Origin: a virus
Lineage: Duplodnaviria > Caudoviricetes
Virus record (IMG/VR): IMGVR_UViG_3300009031_000368
Coordinates: 32,001 to 96,000 of that record
Direction: 5' to 3' (one strand)
DNA length: 64,000 nucleotides
Shown here: piece by piece, positions 43,956 to 53,292 of the stretch
Numbering within the stretch: the stretch's first letter is position 1
How the letters are laid out: every line of letters starts with the position of its first letter
The notes under the pieces: model-generated
The model's database searches: none
Told to the model about the DNA's origin: nothing
Seen by the model: only the letters and a program-made list of their open reading frames with translations
Position numbers and translations under genes: made by a program

Positions 43956-45455
43956 TTACGGCAGGGTGACGTCGATTACGCCATAGAATTCAGGACGCAA
44001 CAGCTTCTTAGCATATCGCATCTTGATTCCCTTACGCGCCGAGAAGTCGTCAGGATCCTCAAGGGTCTGAGTCAGCTTCATCGGAACGTATGGTGCATAC
44101 ACGTAACCTGAGTCCAGGTAACTCTGTCCCTTAAGACCAACCAGGATTGTAGTCTGGTTAGCCATCAGCGGATCGATATATACCATCATTCGGTTAAACA
44201 GTGTACCGACTGCCTGCACGCCGAAATCACTTGACATCGGGCCATAGCTTGGCTGACGAATATGGGTCTGCATACCGTCGCCACCATATGGATTCTGCAC
44301 ATTCTTGGCATAAACCAGCGGTGCAAAGTCACCATGAGTAGTCAGCTGTTGCATATACGCGGCAATCTTTGGCGAAGTAACGATCCAGTTGGCAGGTGCG
44401 CGCATCGAACCAGTATGGATTTGAGCCGACATGGTGCTGATAACGGTCAACAGACCACGGATTCGGTTAATCTCATTCGGATCATCGCCACCACCAAGGT
44501 CATAACTGTCGGTGTATGAAGCATTGCTGATCAGGTCATTGATGATTTCTCGATCAACTTCAAGCGCCATCTGATTACTGAAGATGGCAACCAGTTCCTG
44601 CTCAGCATCCAGTCCATACATGGACTTCATGTCTTCCTGAGCGGTTGAACTCCATCGCGCCCGCATGCGTCGTTCAGTCGCCTTCACAACCTCCATGCTG
44701 ATTTCGATGTTGATCTCAGGAACCTGATCGTTCATTTCATTGTTGTACCAATAGACGGCAACAATGGTTGCACCATCGGCTGGCGCATCGGTGAACTTCA
44801 GGTTACTGACTCGTCCAGTCGTATAGTTGACGGTTCCGGTACCGGCTCCACCGAATGAGCCAGAACCATCGTCGACAACAACCTGAGTAGAATCATCCGG
44901 GTTGGTTGCCGTAATGGTAACGCTGATACCATTGGTGCTATCCAGTGGTCGCACCGGCTTCCAATTGAGTGTCGCATTCAGTCCTAGACCAGCTCCACCG
45001 TAATTGGTACCATCACCTGTTCCGACTGACTCTTCATCAATCTTTTCAGACGAATAGTTGGCACTGAAGGTCTGGATAACCTTATCGCCAGCAGTAATGG
45101 AACCCTTGGTGGTCGCATACTTGGCTTCGTAATAGAACACGGCGCCGTATGGGCCAGTCATCGGCTGAATTGACACCAATTCGTTAGCAATCAGGTTGGG
45201 GAAAATTCGCCTAATGGCCGGGAACAGATACTTGGTATAGGTAGCAATATTGCCAGTCAAAGTATCTTCATTCAGTGCGCCACGCACGAAGTTATACTGA
45301 TTGTTTAACAGAATGGCGGTTGCATTCCGCTTGTGTGGATCCTTAATGTTGCCAACCAGTGGTGCCCAGTTGCGCACAACCCTATTGACCCAACTATCAT
45401 CCTGAATTGTCCCGCGCACATCTTCCTGCATGGGCTTTCGATTTCTTGCTTGCAT
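43956..45455 (-). CDS. major capsid protein (T4 gp23-like) with an inserted beta-domain
   Basis: A.ELVSIQPMTGP.G.VFY, A.ERRMRARWS..AQEDM..MYGLDAEQEL, E+DREII, YAPYVP, RYAK. Confidence 0.97.
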   Translation of the reverse strand: MQARNRKPMQEDVRGTIQDDSWVNRVVRNWAPLVGNIKDPHKRNATAILLNNQYNFVRGALNEDTLTGNIATYTKYLFPAIRRIFPNLIANELVSIQPMTGPYGAVFYYEAKYATTKGSITAGDKVIQTFSANYSSEKIDEESVGTGDGTNYGGAGLGLNATLNWKPVRPLDSTNGISVTITATNPDDSTQVVVDDGSGSFGGAGTGTVNYTTGRVSNLKFTDAPADGATIVAVYWYNNEMNDQVPEINIEISMEVVKATERRMRARWSSTAQEDMKSMYGLDAEQELVAIFSNQMALEVDREIINDLISNASYTDSYDLGGGDDPNEINRIRGLLTVISTMSAQIHTGSMRAPANWIVTSPKIAAYMQQLTTHGDFAPLVYAKNVQNPYGGDGMQTHIRQPSYGPMSSDFGVQAVGTLFNRMMVYIDPLMANQTTILVGLKGQSYLDSGYVYAPYVPMKLTQTLEDPDDFSARKGIKMRYAKKLLRPEFYGVIDVTLP

Positions 45456-45474: not shown

Positions 45475-48400
45475 TTAATCGTCAAGCCGGTCTGGAAATT
45501 GGACCGGATATGCACCTTTTCCGCCCGATTGTGCTATTAGCTCATCTAGCGGTGTTGATGTTGACTCTGTAAAACTTCTTCTTCCAAATGTGTCTTCTTC
45601 GACACTTCTTTCGTATCCTCTTCGCACACGCTCCCGCGCCTTCTCGGCCGCATACGGATCGTGTCTTGCATTTGAACTTTCTGCTAGAATTCTATCTATT
45701 TTTGATGAAGGTGCGCGTTCGCCGATAAGAGATGTTAATTTTTTACCATTTTTCATCTTATTGACGATTTCTGTTGCCCGGTTGGCACGCTCTTCAAGGA
45801 TTTCAACAGCACTCACATACTTTTGAAGTTCCCTTTCATACTGCTCCTTCATCTTTTCACTATTTTCCTTCAAAGCCTTAAGTCGTGAACCATACTTGCC
45901 TGATTCAATCTTTGCGCGTTCATGTTCTGCCGTCAATGCATTGATTCGGTCTTTTGATTCCGACAACAACTGCCTGGTTTCTGTAACTTCACCAGATAGT
46001 TTTAATGCTCTCGCCTCAGATTCAGTCAACCGCTTAACTTCGGCATTAAGACGATTCAATTCAATCTTTGAATCCCTTAAACAATCCTTACTGGCATCAA
46101 CGGTTGTCCTGGCTTCAGCCAATTCAGATCTAATGTTGGCAATATACTGGTCCTTGGCATCTACCAGTTTGGCCGTTTGGATTTCCACTTCCTTGAGGCG
46201 CTTAAGCTCACTGGATGATTCGGTCAGTAAATCCTTTAGACCTTGAACGCTTGCCGCAACTTCCGATACTTCGGCAAATTCGGCCTTCAACTGTTGGAAT
46301 CCTTCCAGCTGTGTCTTTGCCTTTTGAAGAATTCCACGAAGCTTTTCAACCTCTTCCGCCTTGGCTGATAACGATTCAATTTGATGCTTCAGTTCAATGT
46401 TCTCAACCGCAGCCGTATCGACAGGAATCTTGCCGATTTCCTTTGCCAGACGTTCTGCCAGTTCGTCAATCTCCGGTAATTGCATCGTATTAGTTACGCT
46501 TCCGGCAATTAAATCAACCATCGTGTCCTTGTTTTCATACATTGAAAACTTTTGAGCCAGATGATACTTGATGACTGCCCGTCGTCCAAATTCAACCGAT
46601 TCTGCCAGCTGATTCTTTGCGTCAGCCAGTTCGCATTCAATCCTGGCACCATTCTGCTGTTCACGCTTTACGCTGTTTTCCAAATCCTTAATGTATTCGT
46701 TGGAATCCTCTGAAAAGATGAATGGTCTGATCAGCTTAACGATACCTTCAATGGCCCGCTTAGCGCCAGCAACCGATGGATCTTCCAACATCGATTCACG
46801 CAGGTTGTCGGTCAGCTCATCCTTTGCCGCAACGACATCTTCAATCAATCGCCTGGCATAGATTTCCTTTATTCGCGACGTCTCGGTCCTTATCGCATTA
46901 CTGACCGCTTCCTCAACATCTGATTTGGAATACTGCTTATCGGTTACCGTTTGTTGAGTCGTTTCCAATAGGAACTTGTTGGCTTCCGGAATCGCGCGCT
47001 CAATCTCTTCAGAAATCGTTTTACCAATACGTTTCCTTACTTCCTCAACTGATGAACCGGCGATGCGCTCACTTTCAGCAAAAACATCCGGGTAAGCGGT
47101 TTTTGTGGCTGGATCGTAAACGACATCGAAGGTCATTAACCTGTAATCGTCACCAACAGATTCCGTTCCATCCTCAAGCTTGGTGGTAGATCCGTAACCG
47201 CGTGAACTGATACCAGGGTCTATGCCGGCTTCAATTAATCCAGTCAGAATCTTACCGGTTGGTGTTGGCAGAATTTCAGCTTCGCCGATGATTTCATTGC
47301 CTTCAATTCTTAAATCAGTGATGACGTGACTGACACGCTGAAGCCTTGTTTGCCCATCGCTGTTACCGGTCCAAAACGTATGGCCGTTTTGCTCCATGTA
47401 GAAGTTACCGTGATCAACCGATAGACAATAGATGCGACCAGCATGGTGCTCTTCTTCAATCTTCATGAATCTCTGATCAAGCCAAATGTGCTTGGAATTC
47501 GAGAAGTGCAACTGGTAAAGTGGCACCTTATTTTCTGCTTTGATGATCCTACCGGCGAATTCGTAATCACCATCAGGTTCAATGACAGAAATGCTACCAG
47601 CACGCCCAGTCTTAATCAAACACTCATGAAGGTCTTTTATAAGCTGCTCAGATACAGTGAAGACATCGTTCCTGATATTGGTGACATTTCCATGTCGTAC
47701 CGACTCAGCCTTCACTTCCTTAAACGTCTTTCCCGAATCTCTCCATTCACCATTAACCGTATGGTCATCGGTTCTGCTGTCAACAATTCTGCCATCACCG
47801 ATGGAAAACCAAAACAGCAATTCAGATAATGGACCCGGGCCTAGATTTTTGATCTCTGACGGAATATACTTATTGTAGCAGTCGCCAAGCGGCTTCAGAT
47901 AGTTGTAAAGCCTTGCGTCGTATGTCATATAACCGTCAGCATACTTACTCCATTGAATCTCAGGCGACATCTTGCTTAAGACTTCATCATAAATATACTT
48001 GGTTGACCATTCATTCTTTTGGCAAACAAACACAGCATATCCGCTATGGTTTTCCGACCTGCAACATCCTTCCGCGAGATAAATACCCATAAATGCTGCA
48101 AACACGTTTGCATCTATTACAAGGTCTTTTGACGCATCAGTTTTTGTTCCACGTAGTCCCTGTATGGCAGGCAACGTAAATGTTTTCGGTGATTCTGGAT
48201 TCCATTGAGCAGTTTTCGGAATTGCGGAATGACCATATGAAGCCCTGTTTGTAAAGATGGTTTCAGAAGTAACATACTCCTCAAACTCTCTCTTTTCACC
48301 AGGTCGTGTAACAAGAAGATTCCTGTGACCGGGAGTAAAAGTAGAATCGATACTCCTACCTTTAAAATGGTACACCGGTCCATCGTATGGCTCGTCGATG

Positions 48401-48759
48401 ATGGCATTCACGGTAGAGAGAACGGCTTTGCCATTTTTGCGGGACCAAGCCTTTTCACCTACGCCGATATCCCTGAACTTTTTCCACCCACTTTCAGTAA
48501 GTACTTGAAATTGTTCACTTTTCAGACAAGGATGGTCAAGTTCCCCCAGCAATTTCCTACCTTGCATTTTCTCTTCAAGTCGCTCCAATTCGCGCTTCCA
48601 GAGTGGTAACTCATATCGGCGATTGTTTTCGGTCGGCACACCGGCCAATGCGAACAATCCGCGCAGGTAGAGCTTCCTGTTACCATTGGCGGTAGCTTCA
48701 CCAAGCTCTGATTTGAATTTAAACGGAACAGTATCTATAAGAAGTCGTGGCTTTGTCAT
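45475..48759 (-). CDS. prohead protease (T4 gp21-like) with an intein, fused to a long coiled-coil scaffold; start at MTKPRLL
   Basis: N.N.R.Y, GELDHP, VSH.IT, G.AEIL.TP.G, GISSRGYGS, FDVVYDPA; heptad-rich C-half. Confidence 0.92.
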   Translation of the reverse strand: MTKPRLLIDTVPFKFKSELGEATANGNRKLYLRGLFALAGVPTENNRRYELPLWKRELERLEEKMQGRKLLGELDHPCLKSEQFQVLTESGWKKFRDIGVGEKAWSRKNGKAVLSTVNAIIDEPYDGPVYHFKGRSIDSTFTPGHRNLLVTRPGEKREFEEYVTSETIFTNRASYGHSAIPKTAQWNPESPKTFTLPAIQGLRGTKTDASKDLVIDANVFAAFMGIYLAEGCCRSENHSGYAVFVCQKNEWSTKYIYDEVLSKMSPEIQWSKYADGYMTYDARLYNYLKPLGDCYNKYIPSEIKNLGPGPLSELLFWFSIGDGRIVDSRTDDHTVNGEWRDSGKTFKEVKAESVRHGNVTNIRNDVFTVSEQLIKDLHECLIKTGRAGSISVIEPDGDYEFAGRIIKAENKVPLYQLHFSNSKHIWLDQRFMKIEEEHHAGRIYCLSVDHGNFYMEQNGHTFWTGNSDGQTRLQRVSHVITDLRIEGNEIIGEAEILPTPTGKILTGLIEAGIDPGISSRGYGSTTKLEDGTESVGDDYRLMTFDVVYDPATKTAYPDVFAESERIAGSSVEEVRKRIGKTISEEIERAIPEANKFLLETTQQTVTDKQYSKSDVEEAVSNAIRTETSRIKEIYARRLIEDVVAAKDELTDNLRESMLEDPSVAGAKRAIEGIVKLIRPFIFSEDSNEYIKDLENSVKREQQNGARIECELADAKNQLAESVEFGRRAVIKYHLAQKFSMYENKDTMVDLIAGSVTNTMQLPEIDELAERLAKEIGKIPVDTAAVENIELKHQIESLSAKAEEVEKLRGILQKAKTQLEGFQQLKAEFAEVSEVAASVQGLKDLLTESSSELKRLKEVEIQTAKLVDAKDQYIANIRSELAEARTTVDASKDCLRDSKIELNRLNAEVKRLTESEARALKLSGEVTETRQLLSESKDRINALTAEHERAKIESGKYGSRLKALKENSEKMKEQYERELQKYVSAVEILEERANRATEIVNKMKNGKKLTSLIGERAPSSKIDRILAESSNARHDPYAAEKARERVRRGYERSVEEDTFGRRSFTESTSTPLDELIAQSGGKGAYPVQFPDRLDD
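47362..48528 (-). mobile_element. intein, 389 aa, with LAGLIDADG homing endonuclease
   Basis: Starts Cys (CLKSEQFQVLT..GWK) and ends HGNFY....TFWTGN; +1 extein Ser; FMGIYLAEG and WFSIGDG motifs; excision restores HP|SDG. Confidence 0.93.
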
Positions 48760-48818
48760 ATTAATTTCCATATTTTTGCGCAAAATGTAACCTACAATCA
48801 CGCACTACATCTAACGAT

Positions 48819-49224
48819 CTATTTTGTTCTACCATGTTTGGATGTAGAGATATCGGAGTGCTTATACCATCCTTCATTTTCTTCGTCATCTGATGATCGA
48901 TAGTAAACACTCGCCTTTTTAGTATTGGCTTCAAGTTTTGCTAGTCCATTCTCAATCGCCTTATTGATATCATCTATTACAGACTCCAAATTAGCCCACA
49001 TATTAACTGCAAATGCACGTTCAGCTTTTCCTTTTGGTAAATCAGCAACCTTCAATCCCATAGTCTTGTGAAACGACTCCATGTTGGCAAGCGGCAAGCA
49101 GTCCACGAAATTTAAAGTTTGCCATTGCATATATCTGCTTATCAGATATTGGCTTCTTTTTCTTTGTATCTGCTGCTTCTTGCAATTCATACAAGAGATC
49201 ATCGCGTTTGATGCTAGCGCTCAT
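48819..49224 (-). pseudogene. paralog of 49250-49516, frameshifted by a 7-bp tandem duplication (132 aa if restored)
   Basis: GGCAAGC twice at 49086-49099; removing one copy joins QIYAMANFKFRGLL to ANMESFHKTM. Confidence 0.75.
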
Positions 49225-49228
49225 ACGA

Positions 49229-49539
49229 TTACCACTTCATCCATTTGGACTATGATTTTAGATTTGATTCCATCTCTTTAAGTCCTTTTGAAATTACATC
49301 GTGTAGTTCGTCAAGGATATCCTTTAGAGTGTAAGACATTTTTCCCCTTCTAACCTTTGTGCTCATTTTTTGGTGAAATTTATCAAGGTTTGCGAGTATG
49401 CCTTTTAATTTAAAGTTTGACATCGCATAGATCTGTCCGTCTGAAATTGGTTTATTTCCAGATTCAGCTTCATAAATACTGTGCGACAGAATGTCCTCGA
49501 GATTTCTAAAGTTCATGCTATTTACCACTTCATCCATTT
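49229..49539 (-). repeat. 18-bp exact direct repeat AAATGGATGAAGTGGTAA upstream of both tandem paralogs
   Basis: Copies at 49229-49246 and 49522-49539, 4-5 nt before each ATG. Confidence 0.85.
49250..49516 (-). CDS. small helical protein, putative internal head protein; start corrected to MNFRNLED
   Basis: SIYEA then KPISDGQIYAM, shared with its neighbour. Confidence 0.65.
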   Translation of the reverse strand: MNFRNLEDILSHSIYEAESGNKPISDGQIYAMSNFKLKGILANLDKFHQKMSTKVRRGKMSYTLKDILDELHDVISKGLKEMESNLKS

Positions 49540-49713
49540 TGTCTTTGATGCAAAACTGGTACCGGCCAACGTTCTAGGTTTCTTTTTAACCTTTCGGTTA
49601 GTCTTATTGTCACGCCAGTACGGTTTCATCCATCTATAGAAGCCAATCTTTTCAAGGCGGCCAGATCTGTAATGTGTTCTGGCTCGCCTTGGTGCTTCGT
49701 TGATTAAAAACCC
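49522..49713 (-). CDS. predicted -1 frameshift extension of the scaffold (61-aa basic tail)
   Basis: G GGT TTT slippery site at 49707-49713 immediately before the TAA; the -1 frame is open to 49522. Confidence 0.6.
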   Translation of the reverse strand, partial: GFLINEAPRRARTHYRSGRLEKIGFYRWMKPYWRDNKTNRKVKKKPRTLAGTSFASKTKWMKW

Positions 49714-50627
49714 ACCTTTGTTTCATACTCCCTAACGGCTTCCGTTACGGCGTGCAATCGCTTGCGTAGAATCCGACGAAGTGACTCATGATCAGCTTCG
49801 CTCTCCGAAAGAGTATCGGTCGCATTGGCGACATCAATCAAACTATCGGCAATTTCAGATTCACCGATGGCATCGTATCGCTTAGCCATAAGCTCCGCAA
49901 TATCGGCAATCAGTCGGCAACTGATATCAAACTTAGATTCAGTCTCAGTATTCTCATTTGCAATAACACTATCGATTCGATCAATTAGATCGTCAGAGTC
50001 ATATCGTCCCATATCGTCACCGTCCTCCACTGATTCTCCATAACTGTATTCATCACCAAAATCACCATCTGATTCGACATCACCTACTGGCTCTTCCAGC
50101 ATTTCCATCGCAATGTCATAAACCTCTTCGGCCGACATATCATCGAGTCCGAATTCATCGGCAATAAAACCAATAAGCTCTTCGTCTGAAGCACCAGCAT
50201 CAAGCAACGACAGGAAGTCATCATCATCGGCCAATTCACCGGCTACGTCTTCAACGCTGAATGATTCATCGTCAACATCATCCATCATTCCCATGTCGCC
50301 CATATCGTCTGATTCGCCGAATTCGTAAAACTCTTCATCCTCATCATCAAAACCTTTGAAGTTAAGAGATGTGTCATCATCACCAAGGATGTCGGTATCG
50401 GGATCCACGTCGCCATAAGGCTCAACGTAATCATCGGCGAATTCCTCATCGATTGGTGCAATTCTTGACAGATTGGTATCCTGATTCATCGGGCCAACTC
50501 CAAGCGCATTAATTGGTGCCAACACGCCAGACATTTCCAGCATTGTGTCAACATTCGCCCCAAGCTCTTTTAATTCTCGAAGCGGGTTTCCATTCTCGTT
50601 CAACATTCCATAAAACATTTCAGCCAT
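49704..50627 (-). CDS. highly acidic prohead core / scaffold protein, 307 aa
   Basis: D/E-rich; between portal and protease; GAGG RBS. Confidence 0.7.
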   Translation of the reverse strand: MAEMFYGMLNENGNPLRELKELGANVDTMLEMSGVLAPINALGVGPMNQDTNLSRIAPIDEEFADDYVEPYGDVDPDTDILGDDDTSLNFKGFDDEDEEFYEFGESDDMGDMGMMDDVDDESFSVEDVAGELADDDDFLSLLDAGASDEELIGFIADEFGLDDMSAEEVYDIAMEMLEEPVGDVESDGDFGDEYSYGESVEDGDDMGRYDSDDLIDRIDSVIANENTETESKFDISCRLIADIAELMAKRYDAIGESEIADSLIDVANATDTLSESEADHESLRRILRKRLHAVTEAVREYETKVGF

Positions 50628-50639
50628 TGTTACTTTCCT

Positions 50640-51503
50640 CTAACTATTGTTTGCAATCCTTTTGATAAACTCTCCACAAAAGTCTGCCGCATTAACGTGT
50701 CCGGCAATGCCATCATGCAATTTACACAGCTCTGATGTCTCGCATACCGTCGAATCAAGCTTGAGCTTTTGTGAAACCGTTTTAACCACATCTTTGCTAA
50801 AACTTGTTACACCATTAAACATATTGACGAATTCTTGTCTCGTCATCAAAATATCATCTGGAAGTTTGACATCATCTACCTGGATATCTTTTATGCCGTC
50901 GATGACGCCTTCCAGTCTTAACATTATATTATGCAAAGCAACAATGACGTTATCTCTAATTGTTTCATCAGATGATTCGTAATATTTTTGAAACCGCGCC
51001 TTAATGGCTCTATCACGCAAGCCGGATAGCGTTCCATATAGCGCCTTTCTCATTGGAACATTCTTTTCCTCATGAATCCTGACGAATTCTGCTTCAGACA
51101 TCAGTGTCCCAATTCTATTGGAAATCAATTCAGATGCTTCGGCATGGTAAGACTGAATGATGGGAAATAATTCGGTAAGCCCTTTACGGAACGAATCAAG
51201 ATCGCCGACAATCAAACGCTCAACCAGTCTTCTAGACTGTTCGATCAATACGATGGCTTCATCTATTTCGTCAAGCATTTCAAGGTTGAGTTCAAGCTCT
51301 TCGCCGATCGTTAAACCGTCGTATTGGAACTTATGGAAACTGCCATCAGCGTATAAGACTACGACATGGTCTTCATATAGTGAAAACAGTTGAGCCGTCT
51401 CACCAAAATTTCCAGTCACGCAATCAATTGCACGTTCTATCTTGTCCTGGTAACTGTTTTCAACAATCCGTTTTAGCGAATCCAACCTGATCGACTTGCC
51501 CAT
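50640..51503 (-). CDS. head assembly protein of unknown function, 287 aa
   Basis: Directly after the portal; AAGGGA RBS. Confidence 0.65.
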   Translation of the reverse strand: MGKSIRLDSLKRIVENSYQDKIERAIDCVTGNFGETAQLFSLYEDHVVVLYADGSFHKFQYDGLTIGEELELNLEMLDEIDEAIVLIEQSRRLVERLIVGDLDSFRKGLTELFPIIQSYHAEASELISNRIGTLMSEAEFVRIHEEKNVPMRKALYGTLSGLRDRAIKARFQKYYESSDETIRDNVIVALHNIMLRLEGVIDGIKDIQVDDVKLPDDILMTRQEFVNMFNGVTSFSKDVVKTVSQKLKLDSTVCETSELCKLHDGIAGHVNAADFCGEFIKRIANNS

Positions 51504-51558: not shown

Positions 51559-53292
51559 TCAATATTGTTTCTTTTGCATTTCGCTTCGCAATTCCATCAT
51601 CATAGCCCTTGATTTCCTTACATCTCGGCCAACGACATCCATTCGCTCTGTTAATTCGCCTTCCGCGCGCTTAATTCTTGCATCAAGCAATTTACTGACA
51701 TTCCTTTCAGTCAATTGTCCAGCGTTTCGCTTCGTCGGCTTAACCGGCTTACGGAATGTAATGCTTTCTTCACCATAATCACCGCCGCTGTCCTGATTAT
51801 ATGCGTCTTCAATCTCAGCCTGTTGTTCCATTCCGAATGATTGGGCCTTAGCCTGCGTCTTCCCTTCGTCAATGATTTCATTCCTACGCTGTTTCCTGAT
51901 TTCCACAATCTCGTCATCGGTAAACTGCATGACGTTTTTCAAACACCATGTCAGCGATGTGCTTTCAAGAAGCGATTGTATCGTTTGCGCCTTGGCCGCT
52001 AGTGCTTCAATCTGAGACAGTTCATAAATCATTGTTGGCTTTGTCATTGCCAATGTCCATTCGGATTCGTCTGGATCTTTGTCAATAGCCAATAGGTGTG
52101 CGCGACAGACCTGTTTAAATCCAGTCATGATTTCACGCTGGATATTCATCACAGACCTGGCAAAGTTTACATCGGCATGGCTTAAATGCTTTTCTGGAAT
52201 ATCGGCACCGAATCCCAAATATGCGGCAGGAACCTTTAATGCACCTTGCAGTGCCTCTCTAAATCTATCGATATCTTCAGTTCCAGTCCATCCCAATCCA
52301 CCAATCGTTTCAATCCTTGCAGAATCCTTGCCATCTCGTGTGGGTATCCATAGATTTTCGTTCATCGACAACGGGGTAGCGCGCATATCGAGCCCACCCT
52401 TTTCGACATTGTAAAACTTCTTTTTACTATACTGTTGCTTCAATCTATTGATATATTGTCTGGCTTCAGATTCCGGCATACTGCCAACATCGATAAAGAA
52501 TGCAAGCCGCTCTGGACTTCGTTCCAGCCGATACATCAAGCTGGCATCCTCCATCATGGCAAGACGCTTCCATACCGTCCTGGCCGCTTCAACGGCACTT
52601 ATTCCATATACAGATCTGATGTGTTTGGCGCGCAATCTCCAATGGACTATTTCCCATGGCTTATACAGTATCGCACCAGTTGCCGTTATAGCCTTATCGC
52701 GCGAAGCATTGGTATTGACAAAATATTCCATGTCGGTGTCGTTGAATTCAAACCGCATATTGGTATCTTGTATATATCCCAACGTCGTTCCACTAACATC
52801 CATAATCCTTCGCATGCTGGCAGGCGGGAGATAGTTTATGCCAATGACGCCAGTTTCATCAATAAGTATTTCTCCGTATGAGTTCCCCATGTGTGCCAGT
52901 GTCCTTGCCAATGGCCATATATCGGCTTCAATTTCAAGAGCACCATGTAGGAGACCGATCAATTCAGCCTTTGTCCAATCGTCTTCCGTAACGACCCACA
53001 TGCATATACCACGATTGTAATCCGGTTGTGATATATCGTTGGCATATACGTCAAGTGCCGTTTGGATGTATGAAAAGTCATCCATCGCTTCATAATCTCG
53101 ATACCTGGCATGAAGATCGGCTTCGACTTCCAGCATCGGCCTAATCAACGAATAGTTTGATTCAGATACTCCACCGCTACCATCTACACCGAATGTGCCG
53201 CTAATCGGTGACTTAGATGAGCCGGAAATGCGCGAATCCTTCTTACCGAAATACTGTTTAAATTTATCAGATATATTGTTGGACCAACCCAT
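51559..53292 (-). CDS. portal protein (T4 gp20-like), 577 aa
   Basis: YR.YEAM, IVHWRL, YG.S.+E.AR..WKRL.MMEDA..MYRL.RSPER..F.IDVG, ALKVP...L. Confidence 0.96.
   Translation of the reverse strand: MGWSNNISDKFKQYFGKKDSRISGSSKSPISGTFGVDGSGGVSESNYSLIRPMLEVEADLHARYRDYEAMDDFSYIQTALDVYANDISQPDYNRGICMWVVTEDDWTKAELIGLLHGALEIEADIWPLARTLAHMGNSYGEILIDETGVIGINYLPPASMRRIMDVSGTTLGYIQDTNMRFEFNDTDMEYFVNTNASRDKAITATGAILYKPWEIVHWRLRAKHIRSVYGISAVEAARTVWKRLAMMEDASLMYRLERSPERLAFFIDVGSMPESEARQYINRLKQQYSKKKFYNVEKGGLDMRATPLSMNENLWIPTRDGKDSARIETIGGLGWTGTEDIDRFREALQGALKVPAAYLGFGADIPEKHLSHADVNFARSVMNIQREIMTGFKQVCRAHLLAIDKDPDESEWTLAMTKPTMIYELSQIEALAAKAQTIQSLLESTSLTWCLKNVMQFTDDEIVEIRKQRRNEIIDEGKTQAKAQSFGMEQQAEIEDAYNQDSGGDYGEESITFRKPVKPTKRNAGQLTERNVSKLLDARIKRAEGELTERMDVVGRDVRKSRAMMMELRSEMQKKQY

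Follow-up and report, generated by a model that had tools for sequence, protein, structure and literature searches.

To our knowledge, conserved frameshifts in tailed phages are known mainly from tail chaperone genes and a few capsid genes. In T7, a -1 frameshift near the end of the head gene 10 adds a C-terminal extension to some of the molecules (10A/10B). A -1 frameshift near the gene end is likewise described for the major head protein of Lactobacillus phage A2, where it gives an extended fraction (cited in PMC10885494). Two small proteins of T4 are marked by their charge, gp67 being hyperacidic (35 Asp/Glu in 80 aa) and the C-terminal half of gp68 strongly basic. The internal proteins of T4 bear a capsid targeting sequence of the type M-K-T-Y-Q-E-F-I-A-E. 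Of these, IPI-III are small, mostly basic cargo proteins that reach the prohead core through an N-terminal part, which gp21 cleaves off after L/I-x-E, and that remain with the DNA (PMC9026906, PMC3012670). Both gp67 and gp68 are cut by the protease gp21, whose cleavage motif is L/I-X-E (PMC9026906). Here we analyze a stretch of 64 kb (hereafter the window), bases 32001-96000 of the 231.7-kb linear IMG/VR record of an uncultured T4-type phage. In this window the gene for a hyperacidic head-module protein ends on a slippery heptamer, and a -1 frameshift there would probably join the protein to a short basic peptide lying behind a putative prohead-protease site.

The relevant head-module genes all lie on the minus strand. 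The acidic gene and the elements at its 3' end are as follows.

49704-50627, minus strand: 307-aa hyperacidic head-module protein ending ...ETKVGF-stop, from the list of open reading frames (ORFs) and their composition.
49707-49713, minus strand: slippery heptamer G GGT TTT, in phase as X XXY YYZ (codons GTG/GGT/TTT).
49704-49706, minus strand: zero-frame stop TAA directly 3' of the heptamer.
49522-49707, minus strand: -1 frame extension of 61 codons (L-I-N-E-A-P-R-R ... K-W-M-K-W), with its stop TAA at 49522-49524.
49693-49704, minus strand: putative prohead-protease site I-N-E/A (P3 Ile, P1 Glu), four residues past the shift, from the peptide alignment.
49651-49680, minus strand: conserved core R-T-H-Y-R-S-G-R-L-E, wholly upstream of Met27, from the same alignment.
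49639-49698, minus strand: predicted stem-loop, a candidate frameshift stimulator, 8 nt after the heptamer, from a fold of the 68 nt after the stop.
49627-49629, minus strand: internal ATG (Met27), which lies past the conserved core and is the -1 frame's sole canonical start.
49728-49733, minus strand: AGGGAG, a hexamer resembling a Shine-Dalgarno sequence and lying 14 nt upstream of the heptamer; a possible upstream stimulator, noted purely as an observation.

The acidic ORF contains 92 Asp/Glu against 17 Lys/Arg and has no match in Pfam or PHROGs. Its 3' end reads AAG GTG GGT TTT TAA, which bears out a preliminary description of this DNA that had placed a correctly phased heptamer directly before the stop. 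On a -1 slip the P site would change from GGT to GGG, and the A site would go from TTT to TTT. G_GGU_UUU and G_GGA_AAC are among the most shift-prone heptamers in a ranking made with mammalian ribosomes, and G_GGA_AAC is used at the g-t site of a haloarchaeal virus (PMC5009743). As a measure of chance, an in-phase XXXYYYZ heptamer fell within the last 8 codons of 25 of the 895 other long ORFs in related loci (2.8%), a background that the pattern described here exceeds.

A TGA lying five codons upstream of the heptamer's end closes the -1 frame, and from there to Met27 (49629) the frame contains no ATG, GTG or TTG. It holds 19 Lys/Arg and 3 Asp/Glu in 61 residues and occupies a 183-nt stretch, directly downstream of the acidic gene, in which no gene had been called. 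It ends 5 nt upstream of the ATG at 49516; an alternative ATG at 49537 lies inside its last codons, and we prefer the start at 49516 because the paralogous gene further downstream supports it. The preliminary description had reported each of these properties of the frame, namely the upstream TGA, the lack of a start before Met27, the basic composition and the filling of the gap up to the next ATG, and all of them agree with our reading of the DNA. It had also called the acidic protein a hyperacidic scaffold. The first word stands; the scaffold is likely to be, rather, the coiled-coil part of the protease gene product, with the acidic protein at the place of T4 gp67/gp68.

Relatives of this locus were hard to find with single sequences. 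Searches of 50,697 phage records with the region and with the acidic protein (blastn and tblastn) gave no match, and scans of IMG/VR with the acidic protein, the neighboring 287-aa protein or the portal protein taken singly gave no relatives; the best cultured relative of the portal protein was that of Microcystis phage Mel-JY01, at 29% identity. Loci were gathered through portal synteny and a peptide profile. The portal alignment yielded 80 IMG/VR loci, with 4 more from assemblies and 1 from metagenome contigs, and the profile was built from the three peptides of the window, L003 and L004, which are also the three distinct members of the window's own subclade.

Both of these relatives share the gene order of the window (L003: 306 kb, portal 48% identical; L004: 137 kb, GC-rich, portal 44% identical), and in both the gene callers left a gap of 185-200 nt between the gene at the acidic position and the protease gene. 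The upstream ORF of L003 ends AAC GTG GGT TTT TAA, its acidic protein being only 31% identical to that of the window (E 1e-29), and its -1 frame encodes a homologous basic peptide. In L004 the upstream ORF has an in-phase C CCC CCG six codons ahead of its stop, and here too the peptide is found in the -1 frame. An independent groundwater contig, L002, encodes an acidic protein that is 97% identical to that of the window, and the final codons and the heptamer are the same in both; the contig stops 4 nt past the stop codon and confirms the heptamer only. In total the basic peptide was found in 53 distinct loci, always 2-3.5 kb downstream of the portal start and directly before the S77 protease gene, and the peptide profile did not find it in the more distant T4-type loci L093-L099 (portal about 29% identical) or in T4. 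The preliminary description had held that homologs lacking the heptamer, or with stops in the -1 frame, would count against a frameshift. L003, L004 and a sister clade each keep an in-phase heptamer together with an open -1 frame that encodes the basic peptide, an outcome in favor of the frameshift.

Across the 53 loci the peptide is encoded in two main arrangements. In thirty, an in-phase X XXY YYZ heptamer precedes the upstream stop by 0-6 codons and there is no leader; this frameshift class is defined by the absence of any ATG, GTG or TTG where a leader could start, 9-20 codons ahead of the conserved core. Their heptamers are G GGA AAC (26 loci), G GGT TTT (the window and L003), C CCC CCG (L004) and A AAC CCT (L008). 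Twenty loci, here termed standalone, have an own start and no heptamer, the start often overlapping the upstream stop as ATGA or GTGA. All but one of these carry a leader that ends in a hydrophobic-x-Glu site (19/20), and in most the leader has about 12 residues of the type M-x-L-I-P-L-x-x-L-L-G-E. A heptamer and an own start occur together in none of the 53. Three loci (L045, L005/L006) fit neither class, having no strict heptamer and no credible start. In these (L045 9555-9821; L005 5348-5719, which equals L006) the basic peptide lies in the -1 frame of the upstream acidic gene, and in L005 the stop is immediately preceded by G GGG GAA. A different slippery motif, or a different route of expression, may operate in these loci.

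In the portal tree the window groups with L003 and L004 (support 100/100), the standalone loci form one clade, and the G GGA AAC loci form a deep third clade inside which L008 (A AAC CCT) is nested. The nesting of L008 indicates that the frameshift arrangement was kept while the heptamer was exchangeable. All 21 distinct junctions of the G GGA AAC clade have the form NNG GGA AAC. Leu, Met, Ser, Glu and Val all occur ahead of the Gly, in every case with G as the third base of the codon; across these genes only 13% of the Gly codons are GGA, 57% of the Asn codons are AAC, and 34% of third positions are G. A junction fixed against codon usage while the residue varies argues for a constraint on nucleotides and not on amino acids, which is what a slippery site would predict, unlike a need for given C-terminal residues.

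The standalone loci also raise an alternative for the window itself, that the peptide is a separate small protein made from a non-canonical start or by re-initiation after the TAA, with no fusion, the heptamer being a by-product of constraints on the C-terminal residues. That 20 related loci do express a separate gene, often through the ATGA/GTGA overlap of classic translational coupling, speaks for it, as do the three loci without heptamer or obvious start. We nevertheless regard it as unlikely, since the -1 frame of the window offers no ATG, GTG or TTG before Met27, the G GGA AAC clade holds its heptamer at synonymous positions, including a third-base G, against codon usage, the heptamer and an own start exclude each other in the sampled loci, and the frameshift-type members lack the leader of the standalone ones.

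The peptide family was aligned from 39 distinct peptides (alignment A2). Its core, R-K-R-R-T-A-Y-x-S-G-R-x-E, has three invariant and six nearly invariant columns; R12, S17 and R19 are invariant, and T13, Y15, G18 and E21 are conserved in at least 90% of members. The window reads R-A-R-T-H-Y-R-S-G-R-L-E at this place, and the C-terminal end of the family is basic and aromatic. The family has no match in Pfam or PHROGs, and among 1.84 billion proteins it is represented by 57 cluster representatives, many of them truncated at internal Met codons.

The preliminary description had likened I-N-E/A to a gp21-type site, and the alignment agrees. The Glu before the core, at P1, is conserved in at least 90% of the 39 members, and P3 is Leu in 31, Ile in 2 and Val in 4. 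In the frameshift-type loci the codons for this L/I/V-x-E belong to the -1 frame, past the heptamer and short of the core, and no start codon comes before them, so that only ribosomes coming from the upstream gene can read the site. The gp23 homolog of the window also has L-N-E in its N-terminal region, corresponding to the L-T-E/A cleavage site of T4 gp23.

These conserved parts bear directly on the possibility that only the 35-aa ORF from Met27 (49629) is translated, or that the region is a non-coding remnant, the open -1 frame upstream being due to chance. Met27 is the sole canonical start, and automatic gene callers do choose such internal starts in relatives, losing the conserved core as they do so. 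However, Met27 is not itself conserved in the alignment, and the most conserved parts of the family (R-T-x-Y-x-S-G-R-x-E and the L-x-E site) lie upstream of it. Translation from the internal Met alone had been named in the preliminary description as a finding that would overturn the frameshift; a protein started there would have lost the core.

Strain variation points the same way. Contigs of four groundwater runs were placed on 49400-49900. In the contig of a diverged strain the heptamer is unchanged and the extension carries 5 single-nucleotide polymorphisms (SNPs), of which 4 are synonymous third-position changes in the -1 frame, all four upstream of Met27; the same 5 SNPs would alter 5 and 4 residues in the other two frames. 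The probability of at least 4 of 5 SNPs falling at third positions by chance is about 0.045. A second variant has 10 SNPs, 4 of them synonymous and 6 packed into three codons. The strain SNP pattern shows selection on the -1 frame. With synonymous changes precisely in the part that translation from Met27 would leave unread, we consider exclusive use of Met27, or a non-coding remnant, very improbable.

Contigs from three of the four runs (X3, X5 and X7) also cover the T run of the heptamer. One extra T in GGGTTTTTAA, which holds a run of five, would fuse the two frames exactly, and the frames might therefore be joined at the level of nucleic acid, either because the true genome has six T (an assembly error) or because RNA polymerase slips on the run. 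None of the X3, X5 and X7 contigs has an indel at this run, that of the diverged strain included, and L002 (97%) and the distant L003 share T5-TAA. In most relatives, moreover, the heptamers G GGA AAC, C CCC CCG and A AAC CCT hold at most three A or six C, and the homopolymers known to support transcriptional slippage are far longer than these runs. This was the least credible of the explanations that we weighed, slightly behind translation from Met27, and each of the three is contradicted by at least one direct observation. No RNA sequencing run was found to contain the stretch.

We then return to a -1 slip on the ribosome, which downstream RNA structure may favor. In the predicted stem-loop of the window, an outer stem of 5 bp pairs 49694-49698 with 49639-49643, and a core of 7 + 6 bp pairs 49678-49691 with 49653-49665. 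The fold has a dG of -27.2 kcal/mol (z -6.6), and none of 200 shuffles was as stable; among the 9134 windows of 68 nt on the same strand of the 64-kb stretch it is one of the 10 most stable (top 0.1%). Three strain SNPs fall in the stems, all of them changing G-C to G-U. Over the whole set, the frameshift-type loci have a mean z of -2.4 (below -2 in 15 of 25) and the standalone loci a mean z of -1.4. One other subclade has a 9-bp stem 7 nt after the heptamer, with very different loop lengths and one compensatory change from A-U to G-C. The hairpin is supportive and, given a subclade member without it (L003), not decisive for the window.

The standalone loci have hairpins of their own. In L087, L021, L031 and L015 the leader codons I-P-L-S-L-L-L-G-E-G form a strong hairpin of C-rich and G-rich arms (z down to -4.4), so RNA structure at the junction is not limited to frameshift-type loci. 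The AGGGAG hexamer upstream of the heptamer was considered as a stimulator and is not relied on, as it is not conserved in relatives (L003 has GAGGA at 6-nt spacing).

Several points weigh against the frameshift. In E. coli, heptamers ending in AAG are favored (PMC5009743), and the mammalian ranking of G GGU UUU may not hold for bacterial ribosomes. The 13-bp core of the hairpin starts 15 nt after the heptamer against a usual 5-9 nt, and the spacing of 8 nt holds for the 5-bp outer stem alone; L003, in a subclade of only three distinct members, does not share the hairpin (z -0.8), and standalone loci show some local structure too. L045 and L005/L006, with no clear heptamer or start, mean that there is another expression route in the family. 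The sister clade that makes the peptide separately means that the fusion is not required for peptide function. Finally, the support is comparative, and both phage and host are uncultured. Setting these against the in-phase heptamer, its conservation, the two mutually exclusive arrangements and the selection on the -1 frame, we put the probability that a -1 frameshift joins the basic peptide to the acidic protein at roughly three in four.

If the frames are joined in this way, a fraction of the ribosomes on the acidic head-core gene would slip back one base at G GGT TTT, either in tandem or by a P-site slip of tRNA-Phe with the TAA waiting in the A site, probably assisted by the stem-loop 8 nt on. 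Slipped ribosomes would read Leu (TTA) as the first of 61 codons, giving an acidic-basic fusion of about 368 aa. The acidic body may carry the basic tail into the prohead core, where the S77 protease would cut after the Glu of I-N-E/A and release a strongly basic peptide of 57 aa (A-P-R-R ... K-W). As T4 internal proteins do, the freed peptide would remain in the head, probably in association with the DNA. The preliminary description had envisaged a minority isoform at a fixed ratio and a DNA-binding peptide; both are conjectures.

The standalone sister clade starts the peptide independently, behind a leader of about 12 residues with L-x-E at its end, and by this comparison the frameshift would here replace a targeting leader. 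More broadly, the frameshift in this uncultured T4-type clade may be a loading device, with the acidic core protein as a cleavable carrier in place of a capsid-targeting leader and the peptide freed by the head protease to stay with the packaged DNA. The cargo would then have switched over evolution between frameshift fusion and own start plus leader, and the slip rate would set the number of copies per head. This wider proposal is tentative, and we hold it with a little less than even confidence.

Two observations concern the leaders. The N-terminus of T4 gp68 (L085 9024-9062), M-L-L-I-P-E-T-H-E-L-V-L-E, resembles by eye a standalone leader, M-E-L-I-P-L-S-L-L-L-G-E; in the example from L087 (8862-8900), L-I-P stands at positions 3-5 and the L-x-E end comes after 12-13 residues, as in gp68. 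Comparison of the peptide family with gp68 by hhalign gave E 0.12 over 1 column, and the peptide hidden Markov model (HMM) was silent at the T4 locus. The basic peptide might be a short equivalent of gp68, a lead obtained by eye that the profile comparison did not detect. Secondly, the 202-aa protein P0131 carries the leader W-M-P-A-H-E-V-V-E twice: one copy stands at the N-terminus, the other immediately precedes the basic peptide, and a domain of about 120 aa separates them. This suggests that leader plus site form a movable cassette able to load other cargo.

The other genes of the head module in the window are the following.

51559-53292, minus strand: T4-type portal protein (Pfam PF07230, E 2e-60), which served as the synteny anchor for relatives.
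50640-51503, minus strand: 287-aa portal-proximal protein that belongs to no family.
49250-49516 and 49042-49224, minus strand: two small paralogous genes between the basic peptide and the protease gene.
45475-48801, minus strand: T4 gp21-type prohead protease, Peptidase_S77 (Pfam PF03420, E 4e-17; phrog_207, E 1e-41).
43956-45455, minus strand: gp23-type major capsid protein, downstream of the protease gene.

The T4 gene order 20 (portal), 67, 68, 21 (protease), 22, 23 matches that of the window, where the acidic gene sits between the 287-aa gene and the protease gene. In the protease gene, an intein-like inserted segment splits the S77 domain, and a long C-terminal coiled-coil region follows. 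Inteins are common in the head and packaging genes of the clade, being found in the terminase and portal genes of L003 (4605-10856) and in several portal homologs.

The end of the basic frame adjoins a variable region. An exact 18-mer, AAATGGATGAAGTGGTAA, which encodes the last codons of the frame (K-W-M-K-W-stop), occurs on the minus strand at 49522-49539 and again at 49229-49246, one copy in front of each of the tandem small paralogous genes. The place of these genes is empty in the relatives with listed gene tables (L003, L004, L086-L089). Exactly at 49521/49522, contigs of other groundwater runs part from the window; in one, 49228 and 49522 are adjacent and the first paralog is thus missing, and another runs into unrelated sequence. 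The divergence at this point, together with the differences in paralogs, marks the end of the basic frame as a hot spot for gain and loss of small genes. The second paralog is broken by a 7-nt tandem duplication at 49086-49099 (GGCAAGC GGCAAGC in plus-strand letters), and with a single copy of the repeat the gene would read as a frame of 132 aa that matches the first paralog at 43% identity (E 1e-19). The broken gene is a young pseudogene or else a variant at the strain level.

Programmed -1 frameshifting close to the 3' end of structural genes is a known kind of event in phages, and the context in a T4-type head core is new. We found no literature report of a frameshift in T4-type core or scaffold proteins, or of one linked to internal proteins. 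If the reading is right, this would be a conserved frameshift in the T4-type head-core module, one that ties an internal basic peptide to an acidic core protein in its synthesis, its targeting and its dosage. It would also matter for annotation. Gene callers skip the peptide or start it at an internal Met, and a small-protein family and its mode of expression are thus missing from the annotations of large environmental phages. The natural alternation between frameshift fusion and leader-bearing gene offers a ready comparison for how proteins enter proheads.

Among the described systems, T4 gp67 and gp68 share the genome place of the predicted fusion, between portal gene 20 and protease gene 21. 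They differ in being two separately initiated genes with a TAATG junction, and only gene position and charge pattern agree, no sequence homology having been found. The lambda gpG/gpGT system resembles what is predicted for the window: a structural-module gene has an X XXY YYZ heptamer a few codons ahead of its stop, and a -1 slip there leads to a short and an extended product that have a common N-terminal body; the position of this type of frameshift is conserved in many phages with different heptamers, as here (PMC5009743). The lambda genes differ in belonging to the tail module and to other protein families and in that neither product is found in the virion, whereas in the window the extension is short and basic, follows a putative protease site and would probably be set free within the head. 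In T7 10A/10B and in A2 it is the major capsid protein that is extended, and the extended form is a component of the shell; here the carrier would be an internal acidic core protein, and the extension seems made to be cut off. The standalone relatives are closest in logic to T4 IPI-III, with a leader of about 12 residues that ends in L-x-E but differs in sequence from the T4 one, a likeness that is not one of shown homology. In the window, unlike the T4 internal proteins, this leader would be replaced by a 307-aa acidic protein joined to the peptide through the predicted frameshift.

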